Virus record (IMG/VR): IMGVR_UViG_3300032401_001693
Span: 1 to 64,000 of that record
Origin: a virus
DNA length: 64,000 nt
Strand: one strand, 5' to 3'
Part shown: positions 2,654-27,953 of the stretch, piece after piece
How the letters are laid out: every line of letters begins with the position of its first letter
Numbering within the stretch: the first letter of the stretch is position 1
The notes under the pieces: model-generated
Database searches by the model: none
The model's input: the letters and a program-made list of their open reading frames with translations, nothing else
Told to the model about the DNA's origin: nothing
Position numbers and translations under genes: made by a program

Positions 2654-3181
2654 ATGAAGCTAATTGAAGCAATGAAAAGTGTTAAGGAACTGAAAAGAAA
2701 GTCTTCTGATCTTAGGGATAAAGTCAAAATGTTCTGCGCTGACTATGAACACGAGAATCCTGCCTATGGTGATAAGCAGAAAGAACAGATCAAATCCTGG
2801 TTAGATTCCCATAGGGATATTGTGAAACAGATTCTTGATCTTAAGCTAAAGATCCAGAAAACCAATATCTCGACTCTAGTTACTATCACTTTAGATGGGA
2901 AAGATGTAGAACAGTCCATATCTGCTTGGATACTGAGGCGTGGGCAAGGAGTAGACCTTTATGGGTTAGCTCACGAAGAGCTTGCTATGTGGAGCCAACT
3001 TACTGATCGTGGTTTGAAAGAAGGCAAAGTGGCATCTTCAACAGGTGTTATAGAGACTAAGATTAGACGCTACTATGATCCTGCTCTCCGAGATAGGATG
3101 AAAGAGTTGTATATTTCGGAACCTCAAATCATTGATGCTACTCTGGAAGTAGTCAACGCTAGGACAGATTTAGTAGAATAA
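2654..3181 (+). CDS. DIP1984/DUF6847-like coiled-coil protein
   Basis: SD AAGGAGG before ATG 2654; MKLIEA start, KIQKTN, SISAWILRR, C-terminal IDATLEVVNART match the family pattern. Confidence 0.55.
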   Translation: MKLIEAMKSVKELKRKSSDLRDKVKMFCADYEHENPAYGDKQKEQIKSWLDSHRDIVKQILDLKLKIQKTNISTLVTITLDGKDVEQSISAWILRRGQGVDLYGLAHEELAMWSQLTDRGLKEGKVASSTGVIETKIRRYYDPALRDRMKELYISEPQIIDATLEVVNARTDLVE

Positions 3182-3199
3182 CTAAAAAAGGAGACTAAA

Positions 3200-3916
3200 A
3201 TGAAAAAATGTGTCGTGATTGTCTTATTTCTGAGTTTGGTTTTTTGTGGAGGAGTGTTTGCTCAAGTGAACCATATTGTGAATACTAATCTAAACACTAA
3301 CACTAATACTAACCTGAACACTAATACTAACCTAAACACGAATTTGAACACTAACACTAACCTGCAGGGTCAGGTTCAAGGCCAAATGCAAGGACAGTTC
3401 CAGGGGCAGGGTCAGGATCAGATGAATAACTGGTCACAAACTTTCGAAACACCCGATAGGATTACTGGAGTTATAGCTCCTAATCAGGTTGCTCCTTCAG
3501 ACTTAAGCTATGGTCAAGGTTCTCAAAGAAACGTAACTAAAGCATCCTGGATGCCGTTATTCGGTGTAGGAACTATTCAGCCTTTGGTTAGTACAGATTG
3601 CGTTGTTGAAGTGATTTGGATTGAATGTGACATAAAGTTTAAAAACCTTTACAAAACAGTACTTGACGGTATCAAGACTGCTACTAGTAAGGTTCCAGCC
3701 GCTGGTCTTAGGTATCAGATCATAGAAGTGGATTCTGCCAAAAGTTGGACTACTGGTGGGAGTATAGCTGGAAATGGTGTTGGTCCTACTGGGAGTGGTG
3801 GATTTGGAGTAGTTGGTGGTTTTGTTCCCAATATGGGAAGGTGGAAACAAAGTAACTTGTATAATATAGTGCTGGTTCAGGTTCAGGAGTTCAAATCCGA
3901 AATTAAGAAGAAATAA
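3200..3916 (+). CDS. exported protein with (NT)n and QG repeats
   Basis: Signal peptide MKKCVVIVLFLSLVFCGGVFA; NTNLNTN and QGQ repeats. Confidence 0.65.
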   Translation: MKKCVVIVLFLSLVFCGGVFAQVNHIVNTNLNTNTNTNLNTNTNLNTNLNTNTNLQGQVQGQMQGQFQGQGQDQMNNWSQTFETPDRITGVIAPNQVAPSDLSYGQGSQRNVTKASWMPLFGVGTIQPLVSTDCVVEVIWIECDIKFKNLYKTVLDGIKTATSKVPAAGLRYQIIEVDSAKSWTTGGSIAGNGVGPTGSGGFGVVGGFVPNMGRWKQSNLYNIVLVQVQEFKSEIKKK

Positions 3917-5794: not shown

Positions 5795-7240
5795 TTGGAG
5801 ACCCTTGTTGAAATAGTAGATAAAGACAAGAAGACTGTCCCCTTCATACTAAACCCACCCCAAGTCCGCTACTACAGAAATCGAACCTTCCGAGATATCA
5901 TTTTAAAACCGAGACAATTAGGATTCTCAACGGTTATCATGGGTCTGTTTCTACATGAAACCATGTATGTGCCTAATACCGTATCTGTTATAGTTGCGCA
6001 TACCTCAAATGATTCTGCAGATCTGTTCGATAGAGCCAGATTTATGTATAGTTCGGTTCCAGAAGTATTTAGGCCTTCATACAGGCGCTCCAACAGGAGG
6101 GAGCTATTCTTTGAGAAAATTAACTCAAGGTTTTATATAGGTTCTGCGGAGGCTAAGGATTTTGGATTATCTAAGACTATCAATAATCTACACTGCTCTG
6201 AGGTTAGTGCCTTGGCTTGGAGGCAGGACATGTTAGATGGTCTTTTAGAGGCAGTTCCTAGAAGTGGTCGTGTAGTTTTAGAGTCTACAGCCCGTGGTGA
6301 AGGAGGACCTTTTCACAAGATCTATGTAGGAGCTAAAGAAGAAACTAACGAGTTTAGAACTCACTACTACAGGTGGTATGAGCACAAGGAATACCAAGTG
6401 GCGCTTCATCCAGGTGAGAGAATGTCACTAGACGGAGAAGAACAGGATTTAGTAGATAGAGTGGGTTTATCATTAGCGCAGATTAAATGGAGAAGGGAAA
6501 AAGTATCTAGATTAGGTAAAATGTTTATCCAATGGTATCCTGAACTCGAGGATGAGGATGCTTTTATAAGGTCAGGAAGTCCAGTGTTTGATACTGAATT
6601 TCTAAAACTAAGAGATAAACAGCTATTGGAACAAAATCCTACGGAGATCTGGTTAGGTGGTGATTTGTATATCTATCGGGTAGCAGAGGCGGGTGCTAGA
6701 TATTATATAGGGGTTGATCCATCTGAGGGTGACATAAATTCAGACTATTCAGCCGCTATGGTTGTGCGTGGTTGGCCACTTCCAGTTGAACAGGTAGCAT
6801 TATTACATGGTCGTTGGACACCAGATATACTAAGTGAAAAGGTTTATAGAATAGGAATGGCGTATAATAAGGCTATGTTGGTGGTAGAAAGGAATAACCA
6901 TGGTCATGCGGTTATTCTAAATCTAACTAACGGAATAGTTAGACAGGGTGTAGTAAAATATCCGCCCTATCCTCAGATCTTTGTAGGTCCAGATAGGAAG
7001 TTAGGATTTTTAACTTCTAGTTCTTCCAAACCTCAGATCATCCAAGAGATAGATAGGGAGATGAGAAGTGGCGGACTAATAGTGAATTCTAAGACCTTCA
7101 TATCTGAGGCTAAGAAGTTTCAGTTTCTTAAGCAGGATAGGATGGGAGCAGCGTCTGGTACTCATGATGATGTGGTGATGGCCGCAGCTTTGGCGTTGGC
7201 AGGAGTGGGGTTAGGTGGATTTGATTTTAGCTTCACGTAA
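5795..7240 (+). CDS. terL: terminase large subunit
   Basis: Walker A LKPRQLGFST, Walker B LHCSE, ESTARG coupling motif, RNase H IGVDPSEG, VERNNHG, HDDVVMA. Confidence 0.95.
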   Translation: METLVEIVDKDKKTVPFILNPPQVRYYRNRTFRDIILKPRQLGFSTVIMGLFLHETMYVPNTVSVIVAHTSNDSADLFDRARFMYSSVPEVFRPSYRRSNRRELFFEKINSRFYIGSAEAKDFGLSKTINNLHCSEVSALAWRQDMLDGLLEAVPRSGRVVLESTARGEGGPFHKIYVGAKEETNEFRTHYYRWYEHKEYQVALHPGERMSLDGEEQDLVDRVGLSLAQIKWRREKVSRLGKMFIQWYPELEDEDAFIRSGSPVFDTEFLKLRDKQLLEQNPTEIWLGGDLYIYRVAEAGARYYIGVDPSEGDINSDYSAAMVVRGWPLPVEQVALLHGRWTPDILSEKVYRIGMAYNKAMLVVERNNHGHAVILNLTNGIVRQGVVKYPPYPQIFVGPDRKLGFLTSSSSKPQIIQEIDREMRSGGLIVNSKTFISEAKKFQFLKQDRMGAASGTHDDVVMAAALALAGVGLGGFDFSFT

Positions 7241-7250
7241 AGGAGGATTT

Positions 7251-7487
7251 ATGACGAATGAGCCAGAAGTACCTGAAAAATACCGAAGTGGTGGTCCTCA
7301 GATAGGCCCTTATTCTGGGCCTATAGAATATAGAAGTTATCAGAGTGCTTATTCTGGGCCTATAGAATATAGAAGTTATCAGGATTTGGATCACGCACAT
7401 TTTTATTCTGTCGGAAGGAAAGAGCAGTCAGATACTCCAGAAAAGTCTCCAGAAAAGCCTAGAAGAATGCTTAGGCCGGTAAAGTAG
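7251..7487 (+). CDS. hypothetical protein with internal duplication and C-terminal RRMLRP
   Basis: SD AAGGAGG; YSGPIEYRSYQ occurs twice. Confidence 0.5.
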   Translation: MTNEPEVPEKYRSGGPQIGPYSGPIEYRSYQSAYSGPIEYRSYQDLDHAHFYSVGRKEQSDTPEKSPEKPRRMLRPVK

Positions 7488-7496
7488 GAAAAGAGT

Positions 7497-7721
7497 ATGT
7501 TAAGAAGTTTGAAGAGTTTTAGTTTATGGATGTCTATAAGTTCTGTAGTTGGTTGTATATTTAATATCTATAAGAATCCTGTATGTTGGCCTATATGGGA
7601 AGTCAATGCATTGGGGTTTTCTTACTACTTTATATTTGTAAGAAAAGACTATGGTGCGGCTGTAATATGGTTATTTTACATATTCTTTGATGCTTTAGGC
7701 TGGTATGTATGGACTAAATAA
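7497..7721 (+). CDS. small PnuC-like membrane protein
   Basis: Three TM segments; CWPIW..N and GWYVW pattern. Confidence 0.5.
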   Translation: MLRSLKSFSLWMSISSVVGCIFNIYKNPVCWPIWEVNALGFSYYFIFVRKDYGAAVIWLFYIFFDALGWYVWTK

Positions 7722-8701
7722 CCTAAAACCAGCATAGGAGAAGAAATGGATATAAAATTTGCAAAACCAGGTGATAAAGAGGAAAAGCCTCCAGAGGATT
7801 GGAAGCTTGGTGAGTTTGTAGACGCTACAGGTAGGAAATTCAAGTCCTTTATAAGTGGCAGGTATAGGGTGAAGCCTAGCAAGTATATAATTACAAAAGG
7901 TAAACCTATTAAGAATAGTCCCTGGTGTTTTGTAGACTATAAACCAAGACCACGAGAGAACCAGTATGCTTGTAAATCGTGCCTTTGGGAACTTAGGTGT
8001 GGGAGTAAAGTATGAACGATTTGTATTTACTACTGGTTTTGATATTGATTGTTTTGAGGAGATAAAAAATGACAATAATAGAAAAAGCCCCATGTCTTCT
8101 TTCCCTTAGTACGCATGGAGGTGCAGTATTAGACGTAGGCTTTGCAGAGATAGTTTCTTGTTTGGGAGGATGGGCATTTCAGTTAAAAACTGATTCAGCA
8201 TCAAGAACCGATCTATATGAAAATATAGTTAGGGCATATATCGCAGCCATAAAGGAATTTGACAAGACATTCACCCTACCACCAGAAAGTGGACGGAGTG
8301 GATTGGTCGATCAATGGTGATCGCACATTTATCAGTTAAGTTAATTTTTTGGGTTAGCACTTCGATAAATAGCTTTGAACCTTTGTCATTATAAACTATC
8401 TTATAGAAGAGATTGTGGGCTCTCAGAATCAGGCAGCCCAAAAAGGATGTTAAGACCAGTTAGGTAGTATGAAAAGTTGGAAAAAGATTAGAGAAATCCT
8501 TGTTGAACCAAATGGTTATGATCCTACAGGTTGGATAGTTTGCGAATGTGGAAATAGGGATGTATTCATATCTGATACTCCAAAGGAATGTCATCTGTGT
8601 AAGAGGAAGTATGTTACTGAGGTCAAAGTGTTTGAGGTCGTAGATGGATAACGAAGAAAGAGAGCTTAAACGAGAAAGTAGGCTCATATCATCATGGTCG
8701 T

Positions 8702-9025
8702 TTGATTTCTGATAGGGAAAATGACTTGAGAAGAGGGCAAAGGGAGTTTACGGAGTTTGGACTTTGTTGTTCTTGTAACAATTTGGCCGCTAATATTACT
8801 GATTATGGTAGTAAGTTTGCTAAGTGTTCGGAGACTAACAGAAGACTTTCCTCGACGGATCCAGTTAAGCACTGCACTATGTATTATAGGTATGGATTGT
8901 TGGATCTTAAGGAGATGAAAGAGATGGCTATTCTAATAGATGCTAAGGGAAGTAGGAAGATAGGATTTCTCTACGATGAAGATGAACCTATTGAACTAGG
9001 AGAACTATATGCTGATAAAGATTGA
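8702..9025 (+). CDS. Cys-rich hypothetical protein
   Basis: ORF; GLCCSC, ends with KIGF motif. Confidence 0.5.
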   Translation: MISDRENDLRRGQREFTEFGLCCSCNNLAANITDYGSKFAKCSETNRRLSSTDPVKHCTMYYRYGLLDLKEMKEMAILIDAKGSRKIGFLYDEDEPIELGELYADKD

Positions 9026-9223
9026 GGATTTAGAAGAGCAATATGTTGGTATGGTAGTAAACAAAGTGGTGCATAATACTATTTACGCGTGGGTAGGTAA
9101 AAACACTGGTAAGCTATATGGTTTTAAAATAGTGGATCTTTTAAGTGGAAAAACAAGAAAAATCTCGTTTTCCGAACTAGATAGAATGTATAAGGAGCTT
9201 AAAAAAATGGGTGCTGTTGAGGA

Positions 9224-9865
9224 ATGAAAACTATTCTAGCCATAGGTGGTTCTGTAATAAAGACGGCTTACAATGAAGTCAAACAGGCAGCCAGGAAAGG
9301 ATTGTTCGATGTATTGATCCATAATGGTGGTTCTATATTTCATGATTTCCAGTTGACTACTGAGGTTCTTAAGTCTCATTCTTATCCTTTAGATAAGCTG
9401 TTGGAAGACTATGAATGTAATAGACAAGCTTCTGATCTGGTATGGCAATGGGTTTTGGGTAAGACAGCTCCTAAGGGTTCTCTAACTGAGATATGCCAAA
9501 GAAAAGGCATAAAAGTGATGATGTTTACGGTGTTGGGAGGAGACTTTTGGCAGTTATTTGATGATTCTAATAGAAAGTGTTGGACAAAAATAGGGCTACA
9601 AGCTTGGTTTGATTTTGAGGAGCTTTGTAGTATAATGAAAGAGCCCTTTTACTTTATTAATATGGGGTCTGCAGTGGTTATGCCAGAAGTGTTTACTAAG
9701 GCTTTAGCGGTAGTAAAACCTAAGTTTAAGTTTAAAGCAGATGTGGTAGATTTTCTACCTGACCAATACAGGCCAAAAACTAGAGTATCTAAATATGGAA
9801 AGTATTGGAAGATGGATCATAAGGAGTATATGAAGATGTGGCTATTAGGAGCTAAGTTAAAATGA
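9224..9865 (+). CDS. deoxyhypusine-synthase-like (DHS-like NAD/FAD fold) protein
   Basis: IGGSVIK, NGGSIFHDF, NMGSAVVMPEVFTKAL motifs. Confidence 0.55.
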   Translation: MKTILAIGGSVIKTAYNEVKQAARKGLFDVLIHNGGSIFHDFQLTTEVLKSHSYPLDKLLEDYECNRQASDLVWQWVLGKTAPKGSLTEICQRKGIKVMMFTVLGGDFWQLFDDSNRKCWTKIGLQAWFDFEELCSIMKEPFYFINMGSAVVMPEVFTKALAVVKPKFKFKADVVDFLPDQYRPKTRVSKYGKYWKMDHKEYMKMWLLGAKLK

Positions 9866-9911
9866 AAGCTGGCTTATAAAAGCTTCAAAGAAGACTGATG
9901 GAGACAGGTAG

Positions 9912-10721
9912 ATGAAAGAAATAGGACTTAAATTAGCAATAAAAACTGTTATGGATATTCTTATGACTACTGGAGTATATCCGCAGTCTACTTCTGAATG
10001 GGATGAGAAAACTAATACTATAAAAAATACAAAACCCAGAACTGAGTGGCAGGAAGGTTGGAATGCTTGTCAGTGGGAGATTTTTAGTAAGATAAATGAT
10101 TCATTAGGTAAGTTAGAACAAGAAGGCATGTCAGATGAATTAGCTTTATTGATGACTGCGGATGTAGGCTGGTTACAGGATGGTAAGTTTATTCTCAATA
10201 TGAATGACACTTTTCATTATGCTGCGGATGCTGAAGAAGTAAGTGATGAAGAAGTTAAAGAAGTTGCTAGGCTTTTTAAAATTTATGGATATAAAGGAAT
10301 TACACACTGGGTTGCAAAGAAAAGAGGATATGATCCAGAAATTCCAAGGCATAAAAAAGATGTTGAAGATGTGAGGAAATCGGAGTCAAGGAGGTCAAAG
10401 CGAATGAGAAAAGTGCTTCAGGAAACTAAATCTGTAGAGAGAATAGAAGTGTCTTGCGACGATTGTGGTTACTTAATGACTTATAGATCGCATACTTGCT
10501 GTATGTGCCATAAGGATTTATGTGAAAAATGCTATAGAACACACGGAGATGGTGGGGATTACCCACCAGTGTATTGCAAGGATTGTTTAGTTATCGGAAA
10601 ACCTTATATAGACGAAATGAACAAGTTAGAAAGGGAGTATGAAGACAAGTGTGAAGCACTATCTAACGAGTGGAGAGAAAAGTGTTTGGAGAGGAGAAGG
10701 ATTCAACAACTAGAAGAATAA
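9912..10721 (+). CDS. hypothetical protein with C-terminal zinc finger (probable fusion of two genes)
   Basis: CDDC...CCMC..LCEKC...YCKDC; internal GGAGG+ATG near 10404. Confidence 0.5.
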   Translation: MKEIGLKLAIKTVMDILMTTGVYPQSTSEWDEKTNTIKNTKPRTEWQEGWNACQWEIFSKINDSLGKLEQEGMSDELALLMTADVGWLQDGKFILNMNDTFHYAADAEEVSDEEVKEVARLFKIYGYKGITHWVAKKRGYDPEIPRHKKDVEDVRKSESRRSKRMRKVLQETKSVERIEVSCDDCGYLMTYRSHTCCMCHKDLCEKCYRTHGDGGDYPPVYCKDCLVIGKPYIDEMNKLEREYEDKCEALSNEWREKCLERRRIQQLEE

Positions 10722-10739
10722 ATTCAAAAGGAGGAAAGT

Positions 10740-10919
10740 ATGGCAGACACATTTGTGGTAAATAGTAAAGTGAAGAAAGTAGTAAAGGAAAAAGGTTTTA
10801 GAACTGGTGGAGACTATCTAGTTGCACTATCTAAGAAAGTGGAAGAAATGGTTAACGCTTCTGTCAACAAGGTAATAGAAGAGGGCAAAAAGAAGACACT
10901 AGGATCTGAGGATCTGTAA
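10740..10919 (+). CDS. bacterial histone-fold protein (Bd0055-like), 59 aa
   Basis: Not in ORF track; SD AAGGAGG; MADTFVVNSKVKKVVKEKGFRTGGDYLVALSKKVEEMVNASVNKVIEEGKKKTLGSEDL. Confidence 0.8.
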   Translation: MADTFVVNSKVKKVVKEKGFRTGGDYLVALSKKVEEMVNASVNKVIEEGKKKTLGSEDL

Positions 10920-11116
10920 TCTAGTGGTGCAGTAACGGTTGCAGAGTTGAGGAGAAATGAAGGCTCTTTGGTTATCAAGTCCTAGGGCTACATTTTGTAT
11001 TGAGGTAGATGAGGACGGGCTTATCACTAAGACTGCTCCTATATGCTGGCAATGGAGAAAGAAGTTTGTAGGTGATCTTATAGAGGCTTTTCATATAGAT
11101 AGAGTGGAGGAATTAG

Positions 11117-11437
11117 ATGAAAGTAGCGATAATAGGCTCGGCACAGTATAGAGAAAAGTTTGCAGAACATAGACTGCAATTGCTTGAGGAGGGTCATACA
11201 GTGTGGATGCCTGCACTTGATGACCATCCAGACCTAGATGAATTAGGAATATGTGAATATAATAGGAAGATGATTAGATGGGCAGATAGAGTTGATATTA
11301 TTTGGGATCAGAGATCTGTAGGAACCTGTTTTGATTTTGGTATGACCTTTATGGCTGATAAACCTATTCATATAGTCTATTTAGAGCCAAAGACTTTCAA
11401 AGGAGTAATGGAGAAGTATGAACACAATAAAGTTTAG
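11117..11437 (+). CDS. nucleoside 2-deoxyribosyltransferase-like protein
   Basis: IIGS..., IRWAD, SVGTCFDFGM, KPI motifs. Confidence 0.65.
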   Translation: MKVAIIGSAQYREKFAEHRLQLLEEGHTVWMPALDDHPDLDELGICEYNRKMIRWADRVDIIWDQRSVGTCFDFGMTFMADKPIHIVYLEPKTFKGVMEKYEHNKV

Positions 11438-11747
11438 TCATGACTGGAATGGAAAACTAACTTCAGGGGGATGGCTTTTTACCACCATAAGGAAATCTGA
11501 TCCTAAAAAGAATGGTTACTATTCTGACCGGATTGGGGAACTATTTAGTATTGAACTTAAGGGAAAAGTACTAGGAGAGGCAATACTAAAAGATATTTGG
11601 TCTTCCAAGTTCTCTGAGATTAATCCTCCACTACTTATGTTGGACACTGGTTATTTAGATAGCTGGGACATAGATGAGTTATTTAAGCGTTTTAAGATAG
11701 GTCCAGATGATAGGGTCTTGGTTTTAGTTTTTGAGAAATCTTTTTAA
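11418..11747 (+). CDS. ASCH/PUA-like protein
   Basis: IKFS..W.GKL....FTTIR. Confidence 0.5.
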   Translation: MNTIKFSHDWNGKLTSGGWLFTTIRKSDPKKNGYYSDRIGELFSIELKGKVLGEAILKDIWSSKFSEINPPLLMLDTGYLDSWDIDELFKRFKIGPDDRVLVLVFEKSF

Positions 11748-11760
11748 GGAGGGAAGAAAC

Positions 11761-12000
11761 ATGTATTCTAAAACGTCTTATGCAGCAGTAAACTGGTCGT
11801 ATTCTTGGTATGATACTGTTACTGTCTATCCTGGTATTCCTGGTTGTGCTGGTATTCCTGGTTATCCTGGTTATACTCCAGTCCAGATGCCATTAGCACC
11901 TCAAGTCCAGACGCCATTAGCACCGTTGGATTGGGAATTTTCAGTTCCAGTTTTAACTAATGAAAAGAAAACTAGGCGTATGCTTAGGTGTATAAAATAG
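11761..12000 (+). CDS. hypothetical protein with PGY repeats and C-terminal RRMLRC
   Basis: SD AAGGAGGG. Confidence 0.45.
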   Translation: MYSKTSYAAVNWSYSWYDTVTVYPGIPGCAGIPGYPGYTPVQMPLAPQVQTPLAPLDWEFSVPVLTNEKKTRRMLRCIK

Positions 12001-12016
12001 GTGAAAGGAGTACAAA

Positions 12017-12241
12017 ATGGGAAGTAAGGCAACAGCTGAGATAAAAATTGCAAAGAAGCGGCTTAGAACCGGTGGAGGATCTAAAAAGGGCAGGCAGTCT
12101 GCTGTCCATAAGAGCAAATATCAAAAACAGGCTGGTAGGACTCAAAAGAACAAATCAAAAGCCTGGGAGAGGCATCTTGGAAAACATCCTAACGATTCTA
12201 AGGCTAAAGAAGACATCAAGAAAGCAAGGAGAGAGACATGA
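12017..12241 (+). CDS. small, very basic protein
   Basis: SD AAGGAG; K/R-rich. Confidence 0.55.
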   Translation: MGSKATAEIKIAKKRLRTGGGSKKGRQSAVHKSKYQKQAGRTQKNKSKAWERHLGKHPNDSKAKEDIKKARRET

Positions 12242-12573
12242 AGTATAGGAAGAAACCAATAGTAATTGAAGCGTACCAATGGGATCCAGCTATTCTAGGT
12301 TTCACAAATGGAATTGAACTGTTGGATGTTTCTACGGCTGTAGTTTTAGGTGCTTTTACCGTAGCTGGGAAGAAATGTGTGGAATGTAATCGGATTCTGG
12401 CAGAGCATGGAAAGATAAAGACTCTAGAGGGGTTTCATATAGTTTGCCCTGGTGATTGGATTATTACTGGTATTGAAGGAGAGGAGTACCCCTGTAAGCC
12501 AGGTATATTTGAAAAGACCTATGAACTAGAACCTTTTATTCCTAGGTTCCAAGACTCTACGGGGGATGGATGA
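12238..12573 (+). CDS. conserved phage protein (PGDW/PGDYG-like)
   Basis: MKYRKKPIVIEA...TLEG..PGDWII.G..GE.YPCKP.IFEKTYE. Confidence 0.75.
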   Translation: MKYRKKPIVIEAYQWDPAILGFTNGIELLDVSTAVVLGAFTVAGKKCVECNRILAEHGKIKTLEGFHIVCPGDWIITGIEGEEYPCKPGIFEKTYELEPFIPRFQDSTGDG

Positions 12574-13030
12574 TGGATCTAAGACCAGAGGATCTAACTA
12601 TTTTATCTTTTTGTATTTCAGTATTTAATGCTGCTCAGTGCTATGACGAGGAGCTAGTTCAAAAGCGCATAGATGAGTTGAGGGAGTTTGTGGAAAAAGA
12701 GTTTATGGGAGACAAAGTTGGATGATCTAATAAGAAGGGCACAAGAGTTAAGGAAGGAAATACTAGGAGGGTTCAAAACACACCCAGAGGATATGTTTTT
12801 TGCTTTTTGTGTTGTTCTGTTTGATAGTGTCAAAGATGATTTTAATAGTTTGGTTAACGGTTTGGATTTAACTGAGGATGATAAGGCTGTGATGCTGAAG
12901 GGGAGATTGGATAAAAAAGTAGAAGAGTTTTGGGAAGATGTGGAAGGAGTAGTAGAGTTTGGAACGTTGATTATGAAAGAGTTTCATAAAGAGATGAGTA
13001 AAAAGTCTAAAAAGGTAAAAAAGGTAAAGC

Positions 13031-13468
13031 TTGATAAGCCAAATATTTGAGGTTTCTGCTTCTGTTCATTCTAGTGTAGCAGATAGAATTCTAGAGTTTA
13101 TTCATACTACGCTGGTACTGGAATTGTCTAACCGTTTAGAGTTAGAGCATACGTTAGGACAAGACTCCGGACACTTTACATTAGGAATGCGTGCCTTTTT
13201 AGATTTGGTTAGTGATGGTCAAAGCCGTCTTTACCATAATCTATCATCAGGATCACCATTTCACAATCCTTATCCTGATTTTGGTTCTGAAGACCAAATT
13301 TTATCTCCTATAACCACTTTCGCTGGATTTAGAATTGAAAAGAGCAGAACTATTCCAGAGAATTCTATATTTTTTGTTTTACTTGATACAGCTTACCCAC
13401 GTGTAACCTATTTTGCAGGTTGTCTGGAGAAGAAGCCAAAAAGAATGCTTAGATGTTTAGGAGAATAA
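13031..13468 (+). CDS. hypothetical protein with C-terminal KRMLRC
   Basis: ORF. Confidence 0.45.
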   Translation: MISQIFEVSASVHSSVADRILEFIHTTLVLELSNRLELEHTLGQDSGHFTLGMRAFLDLVSDGQSRLYHNLSSGSPFHNPYPDFGSEDQILSPITTFAGFRIEKSRTIPENSIFFVLLDTAYPRVTYFAGCLEKKPKRMLRCLGE

Positions 13469-13477
13469 CTGTTGATA

Positions 13478-13499
13478 TTATATAAATCATTATGATAGG
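13478..13499 (+). promoter_or_regulatory. candidate late promoter TTATATAAATCATwATGATAGG
   Basis: Near-identical copies at 52050 and 54410, each directly upstream of an SD. Confidence 0.6.
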
Positions 13500-13515
13500 A
13501 GTATAAGGGGAAATA

Positions 13516-14928
13516 GTGCGTAAAAGAGTCCCATCCCACCATCTGATACCTAAGAAAGTCCCAGTAAAAGGCAAGACACCATATATTGCAGTAAGATGGG
13601 TTGCTTTAGGTCCTGCAGAAACCAAAAAAGAGATAAAAGGTTGGGTAAGAACCAGGAAACGAAGAACCTCTGCCGTTAGATACCTACAGAAACATCCATT
13701 AAGTGTTGAAATCATTCCAAAATCTGAGTTGGAAAGAGTAATAGAACCTAATAAGGCTGGGAAGCGCTACTTTTCTAAGAAGGAAGTTGAAAAGATTAAG
13801 TTCGTAATGGAGATGAAGAATCCTAGTGAAGCTAATGGTATAACTAGGATCATACATATGGAGAGTGGTGGTAACTATATCCAGCATGTGGATGAATGGA
13901 CTCAGAAAAGGAAAAGAACCAAGTTTAAACGAAGTGCTAAGATTAAAATGGGTGGTCTTAGGGAATACTATAAGTCTTTACTTAAGAGACCCGGAGCGGA
14001 TAAGAAAAGGCAGTTAGGAGCTGTTCTGGCACTAATGAGTGGAGAATGCCACGATCCTCCCAAGAATGTTAGAGTGGGGAGTGGTATTGGTGGTGTAGAA
14101 GAGTCAGTTATAAAGGTAGCTGATCTTAAACGAGGAATGGTTGTATCTCATACGGGTTGGAAACCTGGGACGCTGCCGCATGTAGTGGTAGAAGAAAAAG
14201 ATATCCATGGGATGAAGCATATCTTTCTTAGGAGTATAGACAAGAAAGAGGAAGGGAAAGAATTAGGTAGATATAGGAGTAAAGTAAAGACCCTTGAAAA
14301 GCAGTTGCTTAAGGATCCTCGTAATATAGATAAGAAGCTAGAATTAGAGACTTTCCAGAATAAAGCAACCAAATTGGCTAATGAAATCAATATATCTATC
14401 CCACCTAAATGGACTGAAGTGACTAGATTAGGTCACTATGGTGCCTGTCAAATAGAAGCCCGCCATGTTAAATTCCCAGCTCCTAATGAAGTATGGTTAG
14501 ACTTTATCGGTAAATCTGGAGAAAGATGGAATCTAAAGATAATAGATCACGATTTAGCCGAAGCTATAAAAGACTGCCAACGCGGTAAATCTGGTAATGA
14601 TCAGATATTCCCAGAGGTAGATCGTAACGAAGCTGCTAGAAAAGCTAAGAAGTATGGCATAGCAACACCTAAAGATATTAGAACTTACACGGGAACTAAG
14701 GTTTACGTGGAAGAGTGGAAGAGGCATACCACTCCTACTACTAAGAAAGAACTCAGGGAAATGAAGAAGGACGTGTATACGTTAGTAAGTCAAAAATTAG
14801 GTAATCTACCAGGGACGGCTAAAGGTTCCTATGTAGATCAAACAGTGGCAGTAGCTTTAGAAGCGGGTGTATTGGAGAAAATGAATCTAAAAAAGTCGAT
14901 GCTGTATATAGTAATGGAGGCTATATGA
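13516..14928 (+). CDS. DNA topoisomerase IB (bacterial/viral type)
   Basis: Catalytic motifs VRVG, FIGKSG, PKDIRT, LGN, SYVD. Confidence 0.85.
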   Translation: MRKRVPSHHLIPKKVPVKGKTPYIAVRWVALGPAETKKEIKGWVRTRKRRTSAVRYLQKHPLSVEIIPKSELERVIEPNKAGKRYFSKKEVEKIKFVMEMKNPSEANGITRIIHMESGGNYIQHVDEWTQKRKRTKFKRSAKIKMGGLREYYKSLLKRPGADKKRQLGAVLALMSGECHDPPKNVRVGSGIGGVEESVIKVADLKRGMVVSHTGWKPGTLPHVVVEEKDIHGMKHIFLRSIDKKEEGKELGRYRSKVKTLEKQLLKDPRNIDKKLELETFQNKATKLANEINISIPPKWTEVTRLGHYGACQIEARHVKFPAPNEVWLDFIGKSGERWNLKIIDHDLAEAIKDCQRGKSGNDQIFPEVDRNEAARKAKKYGIATPKDIRTYTGTKVYVEEWKRHTTPTTKKELREMKKDVYTLVSQKLGNLPGTAKGSYVDQTVAVALEAGVLEKMNLKKSMLYIVMEAI

Positions 14929-24752: not shown

Positions 24753-27700
24753 ATGGCGATATTTGATTTTCTATTTAAGGGCAAGATTGACCAGGAAGTG
24801 GTCAAAAGAGTCACTGAAGTTGAGCAGCGGATGGTTGAGGTCTCTGACCAGAAGGTTCAGGAGAAGGCTAGAGAGCTTACAGCCCAATGGCAAGAGCAGC
24901 TTAGAAAAGCCCAAGAAACTGCAGAGGCTAAGTCTTTGCTTCGAGATCCATTTCAGCTTTTGGAGACACTGAAATATAAAGAGCGCCCTATGATGTTGAC
25001 CTATGAGGTTTTGAGATCAATGTCAGAAAGGAATCCTATTATAGCGGCAATTATAAATACTAGGGTTAATCAGGTCTCAGCTTTTTCTTCACCTCCTAAA
25101 TCTCCCTATGATGTAGGTTTTCAGATTGTTTTGAAAAATAGGAAAGAGAAGCCAGATAAAAACGATGAAACTCGGATGGAAGAAATCCAGAATATGGTTT
25201 CCAATACTGGAGTTTCTTCACTTTTACAAGAAGAGCGGGATAACTTCGATACCTATCTAAGGAAAGTAACGAGGGACAGTCTTACCTATGACCAAATGGC
25301 CTATGAAATTATAAACGGAAGAGGAAACTATCCTGTGGCGTTTTTGGCGATAGACGCATCTTCCATTAGGTTGGCTACTACGGCCAGGTATTTCAAAGAT
25401 ATAATGGGTTTGAGAGGTTTTGCTGCACCACCTAAGATAGAGACTGATATGGGATCTATCCAAAAGGAATCTCTTAGACCAGAAGATATAAGGTATGTTC
25501 AGATTATAGATAGTAGAGTAATGACTACCTACACTGAGCAGGAGTTAGGGTTTGGTATTCGTAATCCAAGAACGGCTCTTAGGCAGAATGGTTATGGAGT
25601 GTCTGAGTTAGAGATACTGGTTAATACTGTTACGGCTCATCTTTGGGCAGAAGAATATAATCGCCGAGCCTTTTGTCTGAGTCTTAGAAATTATTGTAGA
25701 ACTAAGGCAGGAGTCTTTCAACTCAAGGATCTAATAGGTAAAACGTTTGAAGTTTGGAATGGTAGAGATTGGGCAAAAGCTAGGGCTTTTGCAACAGGAA
25801 TTAGACCTTTAGTACGTACTAAGTTGTGGAATGGTTTAGAACTAGAAACAAGCCCAGAGCATAAGTTTTATGTGATCCCTAAGGACACAGTTACAGGAGA
25901 ACCTGAGTGGAAAGAACAAAAGGATCTACAGCCGGGTGATTACGCTTTACTCAGTTGTCAAGATTGTGATTTTCCTATGAACTATGATTTACTGAAGGTT
26001 GGAAAACTGTATGGAGAACCTAAGAAGGTTTCTGTTTGGGTTGAACCTCATACTAAAGAGCAGAAAGACCAGGCGGTGAAACATAATGGTCATTTTCAAA
26101 CTATAGGAAATCAGTATTCTAAAACCTTATCTAGGATAGAAGTTCGCCCGTACACCCAGATTTTAAAGTCAAAAACTATAGAAGTTTCCGGCTACGAAAT
26201 GAATTTTACTCCTTATGATAGAGGAAAACAATGGATCCCTACCAAAGAAGTAGTTGAAGATCCTGAGTTTTGGAAAATGATTGGATTTGCTTTGGGGGAT
26301 GGATACTGGGGTAAGAGTTCATTACCAATAGCTCCTAACCCATACCGAGAGTATGACATAACAGAGAGATTTTCCAGTGTGTGTCAGAAATATAATATAC
26401 AGCACACAAAAAGTAGTGAGGGAATTTGTATTAGACACAAAGGTGTTCTAGAGTGGTTGTACGATCTGGGATTCGTTTCAACAGAGGATTCTAAAAAGGA
26501 TGATAGATGTATACCGCCGGTTTTCTTTCGATTGCCTTCTTGGATAAGATGCGCACTGCTTAGTGGTTTATTTAGTGCGGATGGAACCAATGAGGGGTAT
26601 AGATGGGCAGGAACACCAAGTTTTGGTGTTAAAGGAGTTAGATTTAGATTAAGTGTTCTCAAGTGTCTGTGGTCAGTAGGTGTGGCTTCCAACCAAAGAG
26701 GTAGCGGTTGGAGAATTGAACATGGTGGTATTTTAGTTCAAGATGTGGCAGCTTTTGCTAGGAAGATTGGATTTCTACAAACTGATCCTAAATCTATAAA
26801 ATCTAGAGATAATTTGGTTAGATCTGAAAGTTCTAAAAGTAGATGGGATAGACTTCATCCTACTTTATCTAAAATTTTAGCAAATAAAATCTATGATGAA
26901 CATAGGAAATATTCTACAAATGGAAGTAACCAGTACGAAAAGAAAGGTATTGGCAATAGCCCACTTTCCAAGAGAGATGGGTGGTTGATTGTAGGGGCTT
27001 CTTGTGGTGGTCATAAGCTTAGTCGTCCCAGAGCGATAGGTATGTTAGAGAGTTTAGGATTGGAAGTTCCAGAATGGCTTAGAACTTTTATGCAAACTCC
27101 TGTAGACGTTTTGGATAAAGAACCTATTGGGTATGAGCCAATGGGGGATATAGAAGTTTTTGATGACAAGCATCTATTTTTAGCTAATTTTGTTGCTGTC
27201 CATAATTCGCAAGGTTCTGCTCCTAAGGGTATAATTCAACTTGAGGGTAATGTACCGCAGGATCAATTAAATGAGTTTAGGCGACAATGGCATGCTCAGA
27301 TTATGGGAGTTTTTAATGCTTGGAGAACTCCTATTATCAATACTCCATCTGGTAAGTTAAACTATGTTGATCTTTCTAGGAGCAACAAACAGATGGAATA
27401 TTCTAATTGGATAGACTATTTGATTAAGATAGCTTGTGCAGTTTATCTGATAGACCCCTCTGAGATAGGTTTTGATATGAGAGGTGGAGCCCAGACAGCT
27501 CAGCCTCCGGTGTTTGAGTCCCACGGTGAATCCAAGCAGAAGATGTCTAGAGACAAAGGTCTTAGGCCGTTACTTAGGTTTCTACAGACTGAGGTTAATA
27601 AAGACATAGTATATAGAGTATATGATGGGAGGTATGAGTTTGAGTTTGTGGGTTTGGACGCCAAAACGGAGGAGCAGCTTCAAGAGATGCGTCTAAAAGA

Positions 27701-27953
27701 GGTTCAGAACTTTAAGACTATAGATGAGATTAGGGCTGAGTATGATCTTAAACCATTAGGTCATGATATGGGCGGTGATGTAATAATGAATTCTGCTTAT
27801 TTGAGCTATTTGAATCAGCTGGCAATGCAAAAAATGCAGGAAGGACAGGGTGGAGGTCCTGGAGGTGGTGAAGATTTTGGTCAAGAGGAAGGTGCAGAAG
27901 GCGAGGAGCAACCAGACTTTGGAGAAGAGATGACACAAGGTGAAGAAAAATAG
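24753..27953 (+). CDS. portal protein with intein
   Basis: AIINTRVNQV, DSLTYDQ, YGVSELE, F|S.GSAPKGII, KGLRPLL, TIDEIR. Confidence 0.92.
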   Translation: MAIFDFLFKGKIDQEVVKRVTEVEQRMVEVSDQKVQEKARELTAQWQEQLRKAQETAEAKSLLRDPFQLLETLKYKERPMMLTYEVLRSMSERNPIIAAIINTRVNQVSAFSSPPKSPYDVGFQIVLKNRKEKPDKNDETRMEEIQNMVSNTGVSSLLQEERDNFDTYLRKVTRDSLTYDQMAYEIINGRGNYPVAFLAIDASSIRLATTARYFKDIMGLRGFAAPPKIETDMGSIQKESLRPEDIRYVQIIDSRVMTTYTEQELGFGIRNPRTALRQNGYGVSELEILVNTVTAHLWAEEYNRRAFCLSLRNYCRTKAGVFQLKDLIGKTFEVWNGRDWAKARAFATGIRPLVRTKLWNGLELETSPEHKFYVIPKDTVTGEPEWKEQKDLQPGDYALLSCQDCDFPMNYDLLKVGKLYGEPKKVSVWVEPHTKEQKDQAVKHNGHFQTIGNQYSKTLSRIEVRPYTQILKSKTIEVSGYEMNFTPYDRGKQWIPTKEVVEDPEFWKMIGFALGDGYWGKSSLPIAPNPYREYDITERFSSVCQKYNIQHTKSSEGICIRHKGVLEWLYDLGFVSTEDSKKDDRCIPPVFFRLPSWIRCALLSGLFSADGTNEGYRWAGTPSFGVKGVRFRLSVLKCLWSVGVASNQRGSGWRIEHGGILVQDVAAFARKIGFLQTDPKSIKSRDNLVRSESSKSRWDRLHPTLSKILANKIYDEHRKYSTNGSNQYEKKGIGNSPLSKRDGWLIVGASCGGHKLSRPRAIGMLESLGLEVPEWLRTFMQTPVDVLDKEPIGYEPMGDIEVFDDKHLFLANFVAVHNSQGSAPKGIIQLEGNVPQDQLNEFRRQWHAQIMGVFNAWRTPIINTPSGKLNYVDLSRSNKQMEYSNWIDYLIKIACAVYLIDPSEIGFDMRGGAQTAQPPVFESHGESKQKMSRDKGLRPLLRFLQTEVNKDIVYRVYDGRYEFEFVGLDAKTEEQLQEMRLKEVQNFKTIDEIRAEYDLKPLGHDMGGDVIMNSAYLSYLNQLAMQKMQEGQGGGPGGGEDFGQEEGAEGEEQPDFGEEMTQGEEK
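25674..27206 (+). mobile_element. intein with LAGLIDADG endonuclease (511 aa)
   Basis: Starts CLSL, ends AVHN|S; IGFALGDG and LSGLFSADG motifs. Confidence 0.9.

Follow-up and report, generated by a model that had tools for sequence, protein, structure and literature searches.

The phage genome analyzed here encodes an α3-truncated histone that belongs to the 'bacterial dimer' (HBb/Bd0055) group. Judged by its bacterial homologues and by structure prediction, we hold with high confidence that this protein is a DNA-binding histone dimer of Elusimicrobiota origin. Our overall reading goes further and is probable: a histone captured from Elusimicrobiota would work as an architectural DNA-binding protein of the phage.

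A short histone gene with a strong ribosome-binding site

The stretch of DNA under analysis, referred to as the window, comprises the first 64 kb of a linear IMG/VR virus record of 101,811 bp, which is 53% complete according to CheckV. On its plus strand, the histone gene occupies positions 10740..10919, i.e., an open reading frame of 59 codons with an ATG start and a TAA stop. A Shine-Dalgarno sequence, GGAGG (10730..10734, plus strand), can be read 5 nt (AAAGT) ahead of the ATG. By direct reading of the sequence, a gap of 18 nt separates the stop of the upstream gene from the histone gene. The original prediction of a 59-residue frame with a strong Shine-Dalgarno sequence was hence accurate, with exact coordinates, an intact frame and GGAGG placed 5 nt before the ATG. 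The gene is absent from the program-made list of open reading frames because its product of 59 residues is one residue below the default listing limit of 60.

The GC content of the histone gene is 0.372 (GC3 0.333), compared with 0.393 for the window. The protein carries a net charge of +3, which is within the range of its bacterial orthologues. A scan for promoters and terminators yielded fewer promoter-like sites than were found in shuffled sequence, and none of them adjoined the histone gene. No Pfam family was matched by the 59-residue protein, even at an E value of 10, and PHROGs returned nothing besides weak matches to families of unknown function.

The phage protein has the fold of bacterial histones

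We compared the protein with solved structures by sequence and by fold. With phmmer, the PDB matches were HLp from Leptospira perolatii (9qt0, E 7.6e-6) and HBb/Bd0055 (8fvx and 8cmp, E ~1e-5), and nothing of note was found besides these three bacterial histone entries. A family profile built from 21 close homologues matched HBb at E 6.9e-11, HLp at 1.1e-9 and archaeal HTkC at 1.3e-6. The HMMER alignment to the HBb chains covers nearly the whole phage protein. In this alignment, 8fvx and 8cmp confirm the Bd0055 sequence quoted in the original prediction (MAEVLVVTSKVKKLIKEKG...GRKTVM). The histone-type ending that had been noticed is borne out as well, being K51-K52-T53-x4-D58 in the phage protein, and the resemblance as a whole goes well beyond chance.

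An AlphaFold2 model computed from 43 sequences reached a mean pLDDT of 84.5, and DSSP assigned to it helices α1 (residues 8-17), α2 (residues 24-48) and a one-turn α3 (residues 56-58). On the plus strand of the window, helix α1 is encoded at 10761..10790 and carries S9, K10, K12 and K16. It is followed by loop L1, G19-F-R21-T22-G23 (10794..10808), which pairs with L2 of the partner chain in the predicted contacts. Helix α2 (10809..10883) forms an antiparallel handshake via L30, V34, M37 and V38 in the model. L2 and the one-turn α3, G49-K-K51-K52-T53-L-G-S-E-D58-L59 (10884..10916), contain an RxTxxxxD-type motif, as defined in PMC11390915 and PMC11317129, with Lys in place of Arg.

When the model was searched against the PDB with Foldseek, the first eight places were all taken by short bacterial or archaeal histones (HLp, HBb and HTkC), at TM scores of 0.84-0.89 and an rmsd of 0.9-1.4 Å over 57-59 columns; the HBb chains scored 0.88-0.89. 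Nucleosomal histones ranked next with TM scores of ~0.55-0.67, and chains of the HMfA/HMfB type had 0.56-0.61. The three-helix histone fold, on whose presence the original prediction had been staked, is thus found in the AlphaFold2 model, with Foldseek TM scores of 0.84-0.89. Moreover, phmmer, the family profile, AlphaFold2 and Foldseek concur in that the protein has a genuine Bd0055/HBb-type histone fold, as had been proposed from the sequence. The 'bacterial dimer' group is defined by sequence clustering, and its features, i.e., an α3 of 3-4 residues, a shortened α2, sequence relatedness to HBb, the RKTxxxxD-type motif and an α1 that opens with Ser-Lys and has conserved lysines (logo positions 11, 13 and 17), are all present in the phage protein. 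This is in contrast to nucleosomal (HMfB-type) histones, where α3 has ~10 residues and the tetramer interface is a four-helix bundle; α3 of the phage protein has 3 residues.

HLp 9qt0 is both the best single-sequence match in the PDB and the best Foldseek match, and HTkC is among the top fold matches. The phage protein might hence assemble into a face-to-face (FtF) tetramer like HLp and HTkC and wrap ~60 bp of DNA, instead of acting as a lone dimer. We consider this very unlikely, as the family profile favors HBb (6.9e-11) over HLp (1.1e-9). In addition, assembly of the FtF tetramer involves the conserved R49, N53 and R55 of HLp (PMC12701072), and these residues align to K44, G49 and K51 of the phage protein, which thus lacks the Asn that takes part in the hydrogen-bond network. 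Finally, the histones of Elusimicrobiota count as 'bacterial dimers' in the classification of Schwab et al. (2024; PMC11390915). We hence keep to the 'bacterial dimer' assignment in the following.

A predicted handshake dimer with DNA-contact residues of HBb

Prediction of a homodimer gave an ipSAE of 0.77 (median of three runs) compared with 0.00 for the best control; because the HBb dimer is already solved, this value shows likeness to a known dimer and is not proof of dimerization. In a benchmark, the mark of 0.77 was reached by 20 out of 30 solved same-chain pairs and by one of 23 solved single chains. Contacts agreed between the runs by at least 96%, and the pLDDT of the partner chain was at least 88. 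The best-defined contacts were those of L30 with residues 34, 37 and 38, of residue 34 with residue 34, and of T53/L54 with residues 20-23 of the partner, the latter at an expected error of 0.7-0.8 Å. These contacts are the ones expected of a histone handshake, in which the α2 helices cross and L1 of one chain pairs with L2 of the other; the α2 interface residues have L31, I35 and L38 as their counterparts in HBb. From these models, the phage histone probably pairs as an antiparallel homodimer.

Bacterial histones were recognized only in 2023, and their action on DNA is disputed, with coating set against bending. In one model, straight DNA becomes encased by HBb dimers that attach to it end-on (Hocher et al. 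2023, PMC10627809). In the other, a lone dimer bends DNA by ~84 degrees, like HU and IHF (Hu et al. 2024, PMC11317129). The latter work identified T8, S9, K10, K12, K16, N22, S24, K52, T53 and R57 as the backbone contacts of HBb, which also has an R51-D58 clamp (PMC11317129).

In the alignment, the phage protein retains S9, K10, K12, K16, K52, T53 and D58 of these HBb residues. The columns of S9, K10, K12 and K16 in α1 are 99-100% conserved in 79 bacterial copies from Elusimicrobiota, and the phage protein keeps them. It differs from HBb by K51 at the position of the clamp Arg51, by Arg21 compared with Asn22 and by Glu57 compared with Arg57. All three residues are common to all or nearly all Elusimicrobiota copies: Lys is found at the clamp in 97% of the orthologues, R21 is invariant among the 79 bacterial copies, and Glu57, at the position of the HBb DNA contact R57, is shared by the phage protein and each of the 79 copies compared. 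Since R57 of HBb is Glu in the phage protein, details of its binding may differ from HBb. By analogy to HBb, the phage dimer probably binds DNA and bends or coats it. Either of these actions would suit a phage protein that organizes or protects replicating DNA. We know of no experiments on phage histones of the Bd0055-like kind.

The histone is of Elusimicrobiota type

A word-indexed search of 5.8 billion proteins yielded 97 homologues at E ≤2.8e-12, with identities of 56-83% and nearly all of 59-60 residues. Every named member among them came from an Elusimicrobiota metagenome-assembled genome (MAG). A scan of GTDB with one genome per species gave 135 relatives of the phage histone; the best 80 of these, at 56-78% identity, are from Elusimicrobiota as judged by record title, save one that is labeled just 'bacterium'. 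The bacterial histone was present as a single copy in all five Elusimicrobiota genomes checked. In two low-GC genomes, its neighbors were housekeeping genes, i.e., those for 3-dehydroquinate synthase, leucyl-tRNA synthetase, Rho and dCMP deaminase. It is not universal in the phylum, as 12 of 61 sampled Elusimicrobiota genomes contained it.

The phage copy fits into this family without deviation at its most conserved positions: 28 columns show a conservation of 90% or more across the 79 bacterial copies, and it keeps all of them. With these copies it shares 66% identity on average and 78% at maximum, which is within the spread that they show among themselves (mean 70%, range 49-98). In a tree, the phage copy is placed inside the Elusimicrobiota cluster, which a branch with an SH-aLRT support of 90 splits from eight of 11 distant sequences. 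The place of the phage copy within the cluster is not resolved by this 59-column tree, except for its pairing with P0002 (support 86), a protein 85% identical to the phage histone and encoded on a 673-bp contig. The phage histone has N8, V28, I46 and E47, residues that are absent at these positions from all 79 bacterial copies. P0002 has N8, T28, M46 and E47 there, i.e., again a non-acidic residue at position 28 and a hydrophobic one at position 46. From these shared residues, P0002 is probably a second phage copy.

The relationship can also be followed at the DNA level. When 20 kb of the phage DNA were compared with 401 Elusimicrobiota genomes, the histone gene alone matched over more than ~55 nt, with 66-74% nucleotide identity in ~19 of the 401 genomes. 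The GC content of 80 bacterial loci was mostly 0.46-0.71, with about ten low-GC loci at 0.26-0.40. The phage-like GC content of the histone gene is hence compatible both with a long residence in the phage and with a low-GC donor.

Such closeness to a bacterial protein, which amounts to near-identity with the donor histone over the entire dimer interface, could also mean that the phage histone is aimed at the host nucleoid, where mixed dimers or competition for sites would disturb host chromatin and expression. The conservation of 28 out of 28 family columns, predicted interface residues among them, would fit this, and the mirroring of N8, V28, I46 and E47 in P0002 suggests a phage-specific change of the surface. 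Neither I46 nor E47 belongs to the predicted dimer interface; both are found at the C-terminal end of α2, a region that serves dimer-dimer contacts in other histones (PMC12701072). An action on the host nucleoid, however, presupposes that the present host has a histone of the Elusimicrobiota type. Furthermore, neither the charge of +3 nor the DNA-contact residues stand out within the family, as would be expected of a plain DNA binder. We therefore regard it as distinctly unlikely and prefer the reading of a histone that acts as an architectural protein of the phage.

The histone gene is an accessory gene of a large SPO1-like phage

That the histone is phage-encoded, as the original prediction had assumed, is supported by its position within a tailed-phage genome, deposited as an IMG/VR virus record, in which the genes for terminase, portal, protease and capsid share its strand. 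With PHROGs, we assigned the large terminase (5795-7240), a portal protein of 1066 residues (24753-27953), the head maturation protease (52380-53642) and the major head protein (55200-56630, E 1.6e-96), all on the plus strand. Open reading frames of at least 150 residues are all on this strand save one, which is nested in a larger plus-strand frame, and a strong GC skew runs throughout. With its counterparts in SPO1-like (Herelleviridae) Bacillus phages, the major head protein shares 42-45% identity, and with those of two related metagenomic records, G305 and G306, it shares 76%.

The window and its closest relative, G306, are collinear over a stretch that begins with the terminase and extends through the head genes. 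The stretch between terminase and topoisomerase, 7.3 kb long in the window (7.2-14.5 kb), corresponds to 14.8 kb of unrelated sequence in G306. This comparison defines a variable accessory segment with the histone gene at 7241..13515 on the plus strand, from the terminase to a topoisomerase-IB-like gene. G306 lacks the histone gene and also both genes that flank it.

The family profile detected no histone in ten records of phages with a related major head protein, of which seven have a completeness of at least 90%; searched against the window's own record as a positive control, it gave an E value of 1.6e-30. With tblastn, the histone had no match among 50,697 deposited phage genomes, and a pattern scan of IMG/VR, within the limits of its patterns, revealed no other viral contig with the histone gene. 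In metagenomes, 59 loci contained a relative of the histone, and none of these had any other gene in common with the window. The exact 59-residue protein was present on four contigs. The histone gene is an accessory gene in its phage group.

The nearest relatives of the histone are chromosomal bacterial genes and the IMG/VR record is linear and incomplete, which leads to the question whether the gene is phage-borne at all or was brought in by a chimeric assembly or as host DNA flanking a prophage. We give this almost no credence. The histone gene is part of a tight array of genes on one strand, 3.5 kb past the terminase and 14 kb ahead of the portal gene, and collinearity with related phages is seen on both sides. 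Its GC content of 0.372 fits the phage, and the exact protein recurs on four contigs. The gene upstream points in the same direction, as its N-terminal domain has ~30 homologues and its C-terminal part falls together with viral protein clusters of the Atlas. We thus treat the histone as a phage gene.

This upstream gene (9912-10721, plus strand), which directly precedes the histone gene across the 18-nt gap, consists of two parts. For the N-terminal domain of ~165 residues, the ~30 homologues have 154-257 residues, and none of them reaches the C-terminal extension. The extension has nine Cys and three His in residues 182-225, resembling a cross-brace zinc finger, and a long helix at residues 220-268. 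Comparison of the zinc finger with B-box and ZZ domains (CBP, p300, BIG) gave weak, non-significant matches, and in a single-sequence model the pLDDT was <50 over the zinc finger. Placed next to the histone, this gene brings to mind the ZZ-histone fusions that Schwab et al. (2024) described, with the zinc-finger matches being non-significant.

Three further genes of the window are worth recording. Just downstream of the histone, a 106-residue protein (11117-11437) weakly resembles nucleoside 2-deoxyribosyltransferase (PF05014, E 9.7e-4, under the cut-off). The topoisomerase-IB-like gene (13516-14928, plus strand; 470 residues, catalytic core PF01028, E 3.7e-12) is located 2.6 kb downstream of the histone and is conserved in G305 and G306; it is possible that the histone and the topoisomerase-IB-like protein form a DNA-topology pair. 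The portal gene contains an in-frame insert of ~1.5 kb (about 25674-27170) that is missing from the contiguous portal gene of G306. The insert has a weak Intein_splicing match (E 1.8e-4, under the Pfam cut-off) and is a candidate intein.

The present host

The original prediction had taken the histone as a hint of a histone-bearing host lineage. For the donor, this can now be made specific, the lineage being Elusimicrobiota; for the present host, the histone gene is the one piece of evidence that points there. On this basis, Elusimicrobiota are slightly favored as the present host.

Searches for other traces of contact with this phylum gave little. The major head protein had weak matches of 28-30% identity in six of 301 Elusimicrobiota genomes. 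Neither this search nor the comparison of 20 kb of phage DNA with 401 Elusimicrobiota genomes revealed a CRISPR spacer or a prophage link. Among the hits of 24-55 nt, no CRISPR-like repeats were present at the three places that were fetched, and three further short hits fall on a single A-rich ribosome-site stretch (3167-3209). To our knowledge, no phages of Elusimicrobiota have been reported.

Beyond the window, at 89025-90131 of the record, a glycan gene island contains a DegT/perosamine-synthetase-like aminotransferase. This protein is 77-83% identical to a cluster in which the sole named members are from Thermodesulfobacteriota MAGs, and its best match in the 301 Elusimicrobiota genomes has 64% identity. 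Sugar-pathway genes often move between phyla. Because of this frequent transfer, the DegT signal does not outweigh the histone, yet it bars a firm assignment of the host.

Proposed role and comparison with TF1

We propose that the phage lineage would have captured the histone from an Elusimicrobiota chromosome, or from another phage of such bacteria, and that the captured gene now resides in a large SPO1-like tailed phage, as part of its variable accessory segment. As judged from HBb, the histone dimer would bind the DNA backbone across minor grooves without sequence preference, and would bend and compact the DNA or coat it. The least certain step, drawn from phage relatives, is that the histone would serve as an abundant architectural DNA-binding protein during infection. 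The type of protein would then follow the donor lineage's own nucleoid protein, and its role would match that of the HU-type TF1 of SPO1-like phages.

The related phages provide the background for this comparison. Four complete relatives (G307, G308, G309 and G314) contain one HU-family gene each (E 1e-18 to 7e-21). In contrast, we found no HU gene in the 101.8 kb of the phage record, which is 53% complete by CheckV; as about half of the phage genome is missing from the record, an HU/TF1 gene may be located in the rest, which would weaken the idea of a replacement. TF1, the HU homologue of SPO1, is essential for phage growth according to Sayre and Geiduschek (1988), as cited in PMC10531801.

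Like TF1, the phage histone would be a phage copy of a host-type, abundant, DNA-bending nucleoid protein, and both occur in the same broad structural phage lineage. The HU fold, however, is unrelated to that of histones, and the analogy is one of role only. We put forward tentatively, at somewhat short of an even chance, that the histone fills a TF1-like role. A wider proposal would be that the SPO1-like lineage matches its architectural protein to the host, using HU/TF1 on Bacillota, and that a branch on Elusimicrobiota swapped in a histone. We consider this rather unlikely. In the case of such a swap, N8, V28, I46 and E47 might serve to tell phage from host DNA, or might allow mixed dimers. 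If true, this would be a natural exchange of HU for a histone, and would also provide a handle on the hosts among Elusimicrobiota.

Comparison with known histones

Taken alone, the gene changes nothing in existing knowledge, as its class has been catalogued already. Its value lies elsewhere: with a copy in this phage that is exceptionally near to bacterial orthologues (up to 78% identity) and the only one in the phage group, and with HU/TF1 in its complete relatives, it offers a clean natural comparison for asking why a phage needs a nucleoid protein of its own. In addition, it is a testable lead to phages of Elusimicrobiota.

The closest characterized protein is HBb/Bd0055 (8fvx, 8cmp, 9ezz, 9f0e; PMC10627809, PMC11317129). 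Both proteins are single folds of ~60 residues with a shortened α2 and a one-turn α3, and are 37-39% identical over the fold. They share a MAExLVVxSKVKK start, the KT motif in L2, the clamp Asp58 and the α2 handshake dimer, which is predicted in the phage protein. In contrast to HBb, the phage protein has an L1 that is one residue shorter, an L2 that is one residue longer, and no C-terminal tail after α3, so that its 59 residues compare with 64-66 in the solved chains.

The chromosomal histones of Elusimicrobiota are closer still, having the same length, 56-78% identity and identical residues in the 28 strongly conserved columns. They differ in their setting, i.e., the bacterial genes are found amid housekeeping genes, whereas the phage gene is part of an accessory segment and has a low, phage-like GC content.

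Virus-encoded histones have been described before. The 'phage histones' of Schwab et al. 2024 (A0A2E7QIQ9; PMC11390915) likewise have an α3-type fold and come from tailed-phage contigs. However, they contain a C-terminal helical tetramerization domain and no RxTxxxD motif, and the present protein is the opposite in both respects. More similar are the 84 bacterial-like histones reported from Caudoviricetes in an hLife paper, which gives Pseudomonadota as predicted hosts and does not mention Elusimicrobiota (PMC13681535). These are virus-encoded as well and come from metagenomic Caudoviricetes; their monomers fold like Bd0055, and dimers are predicted for them. Their C-terminus is predicted to be helical in the place of the flexible loop of Bd0055; the present protein stops one residue past α3. 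The original prediction had called phage histones little characterized, and in this it overstated the novelty, as phage genes of the Bd0055-like kind were catalogued computationally in 2024-2025, the 84 from Caudoviricetes among them (PMC13681535). The class of phage-borne bacterial-type histones is hence already known, and the present gene is a good further example of it. Three points set it apart: it is nearly orthologous to the histone of one phylum, it is unique among its phage group, and it contrasts with the HU genes of phage relatives.
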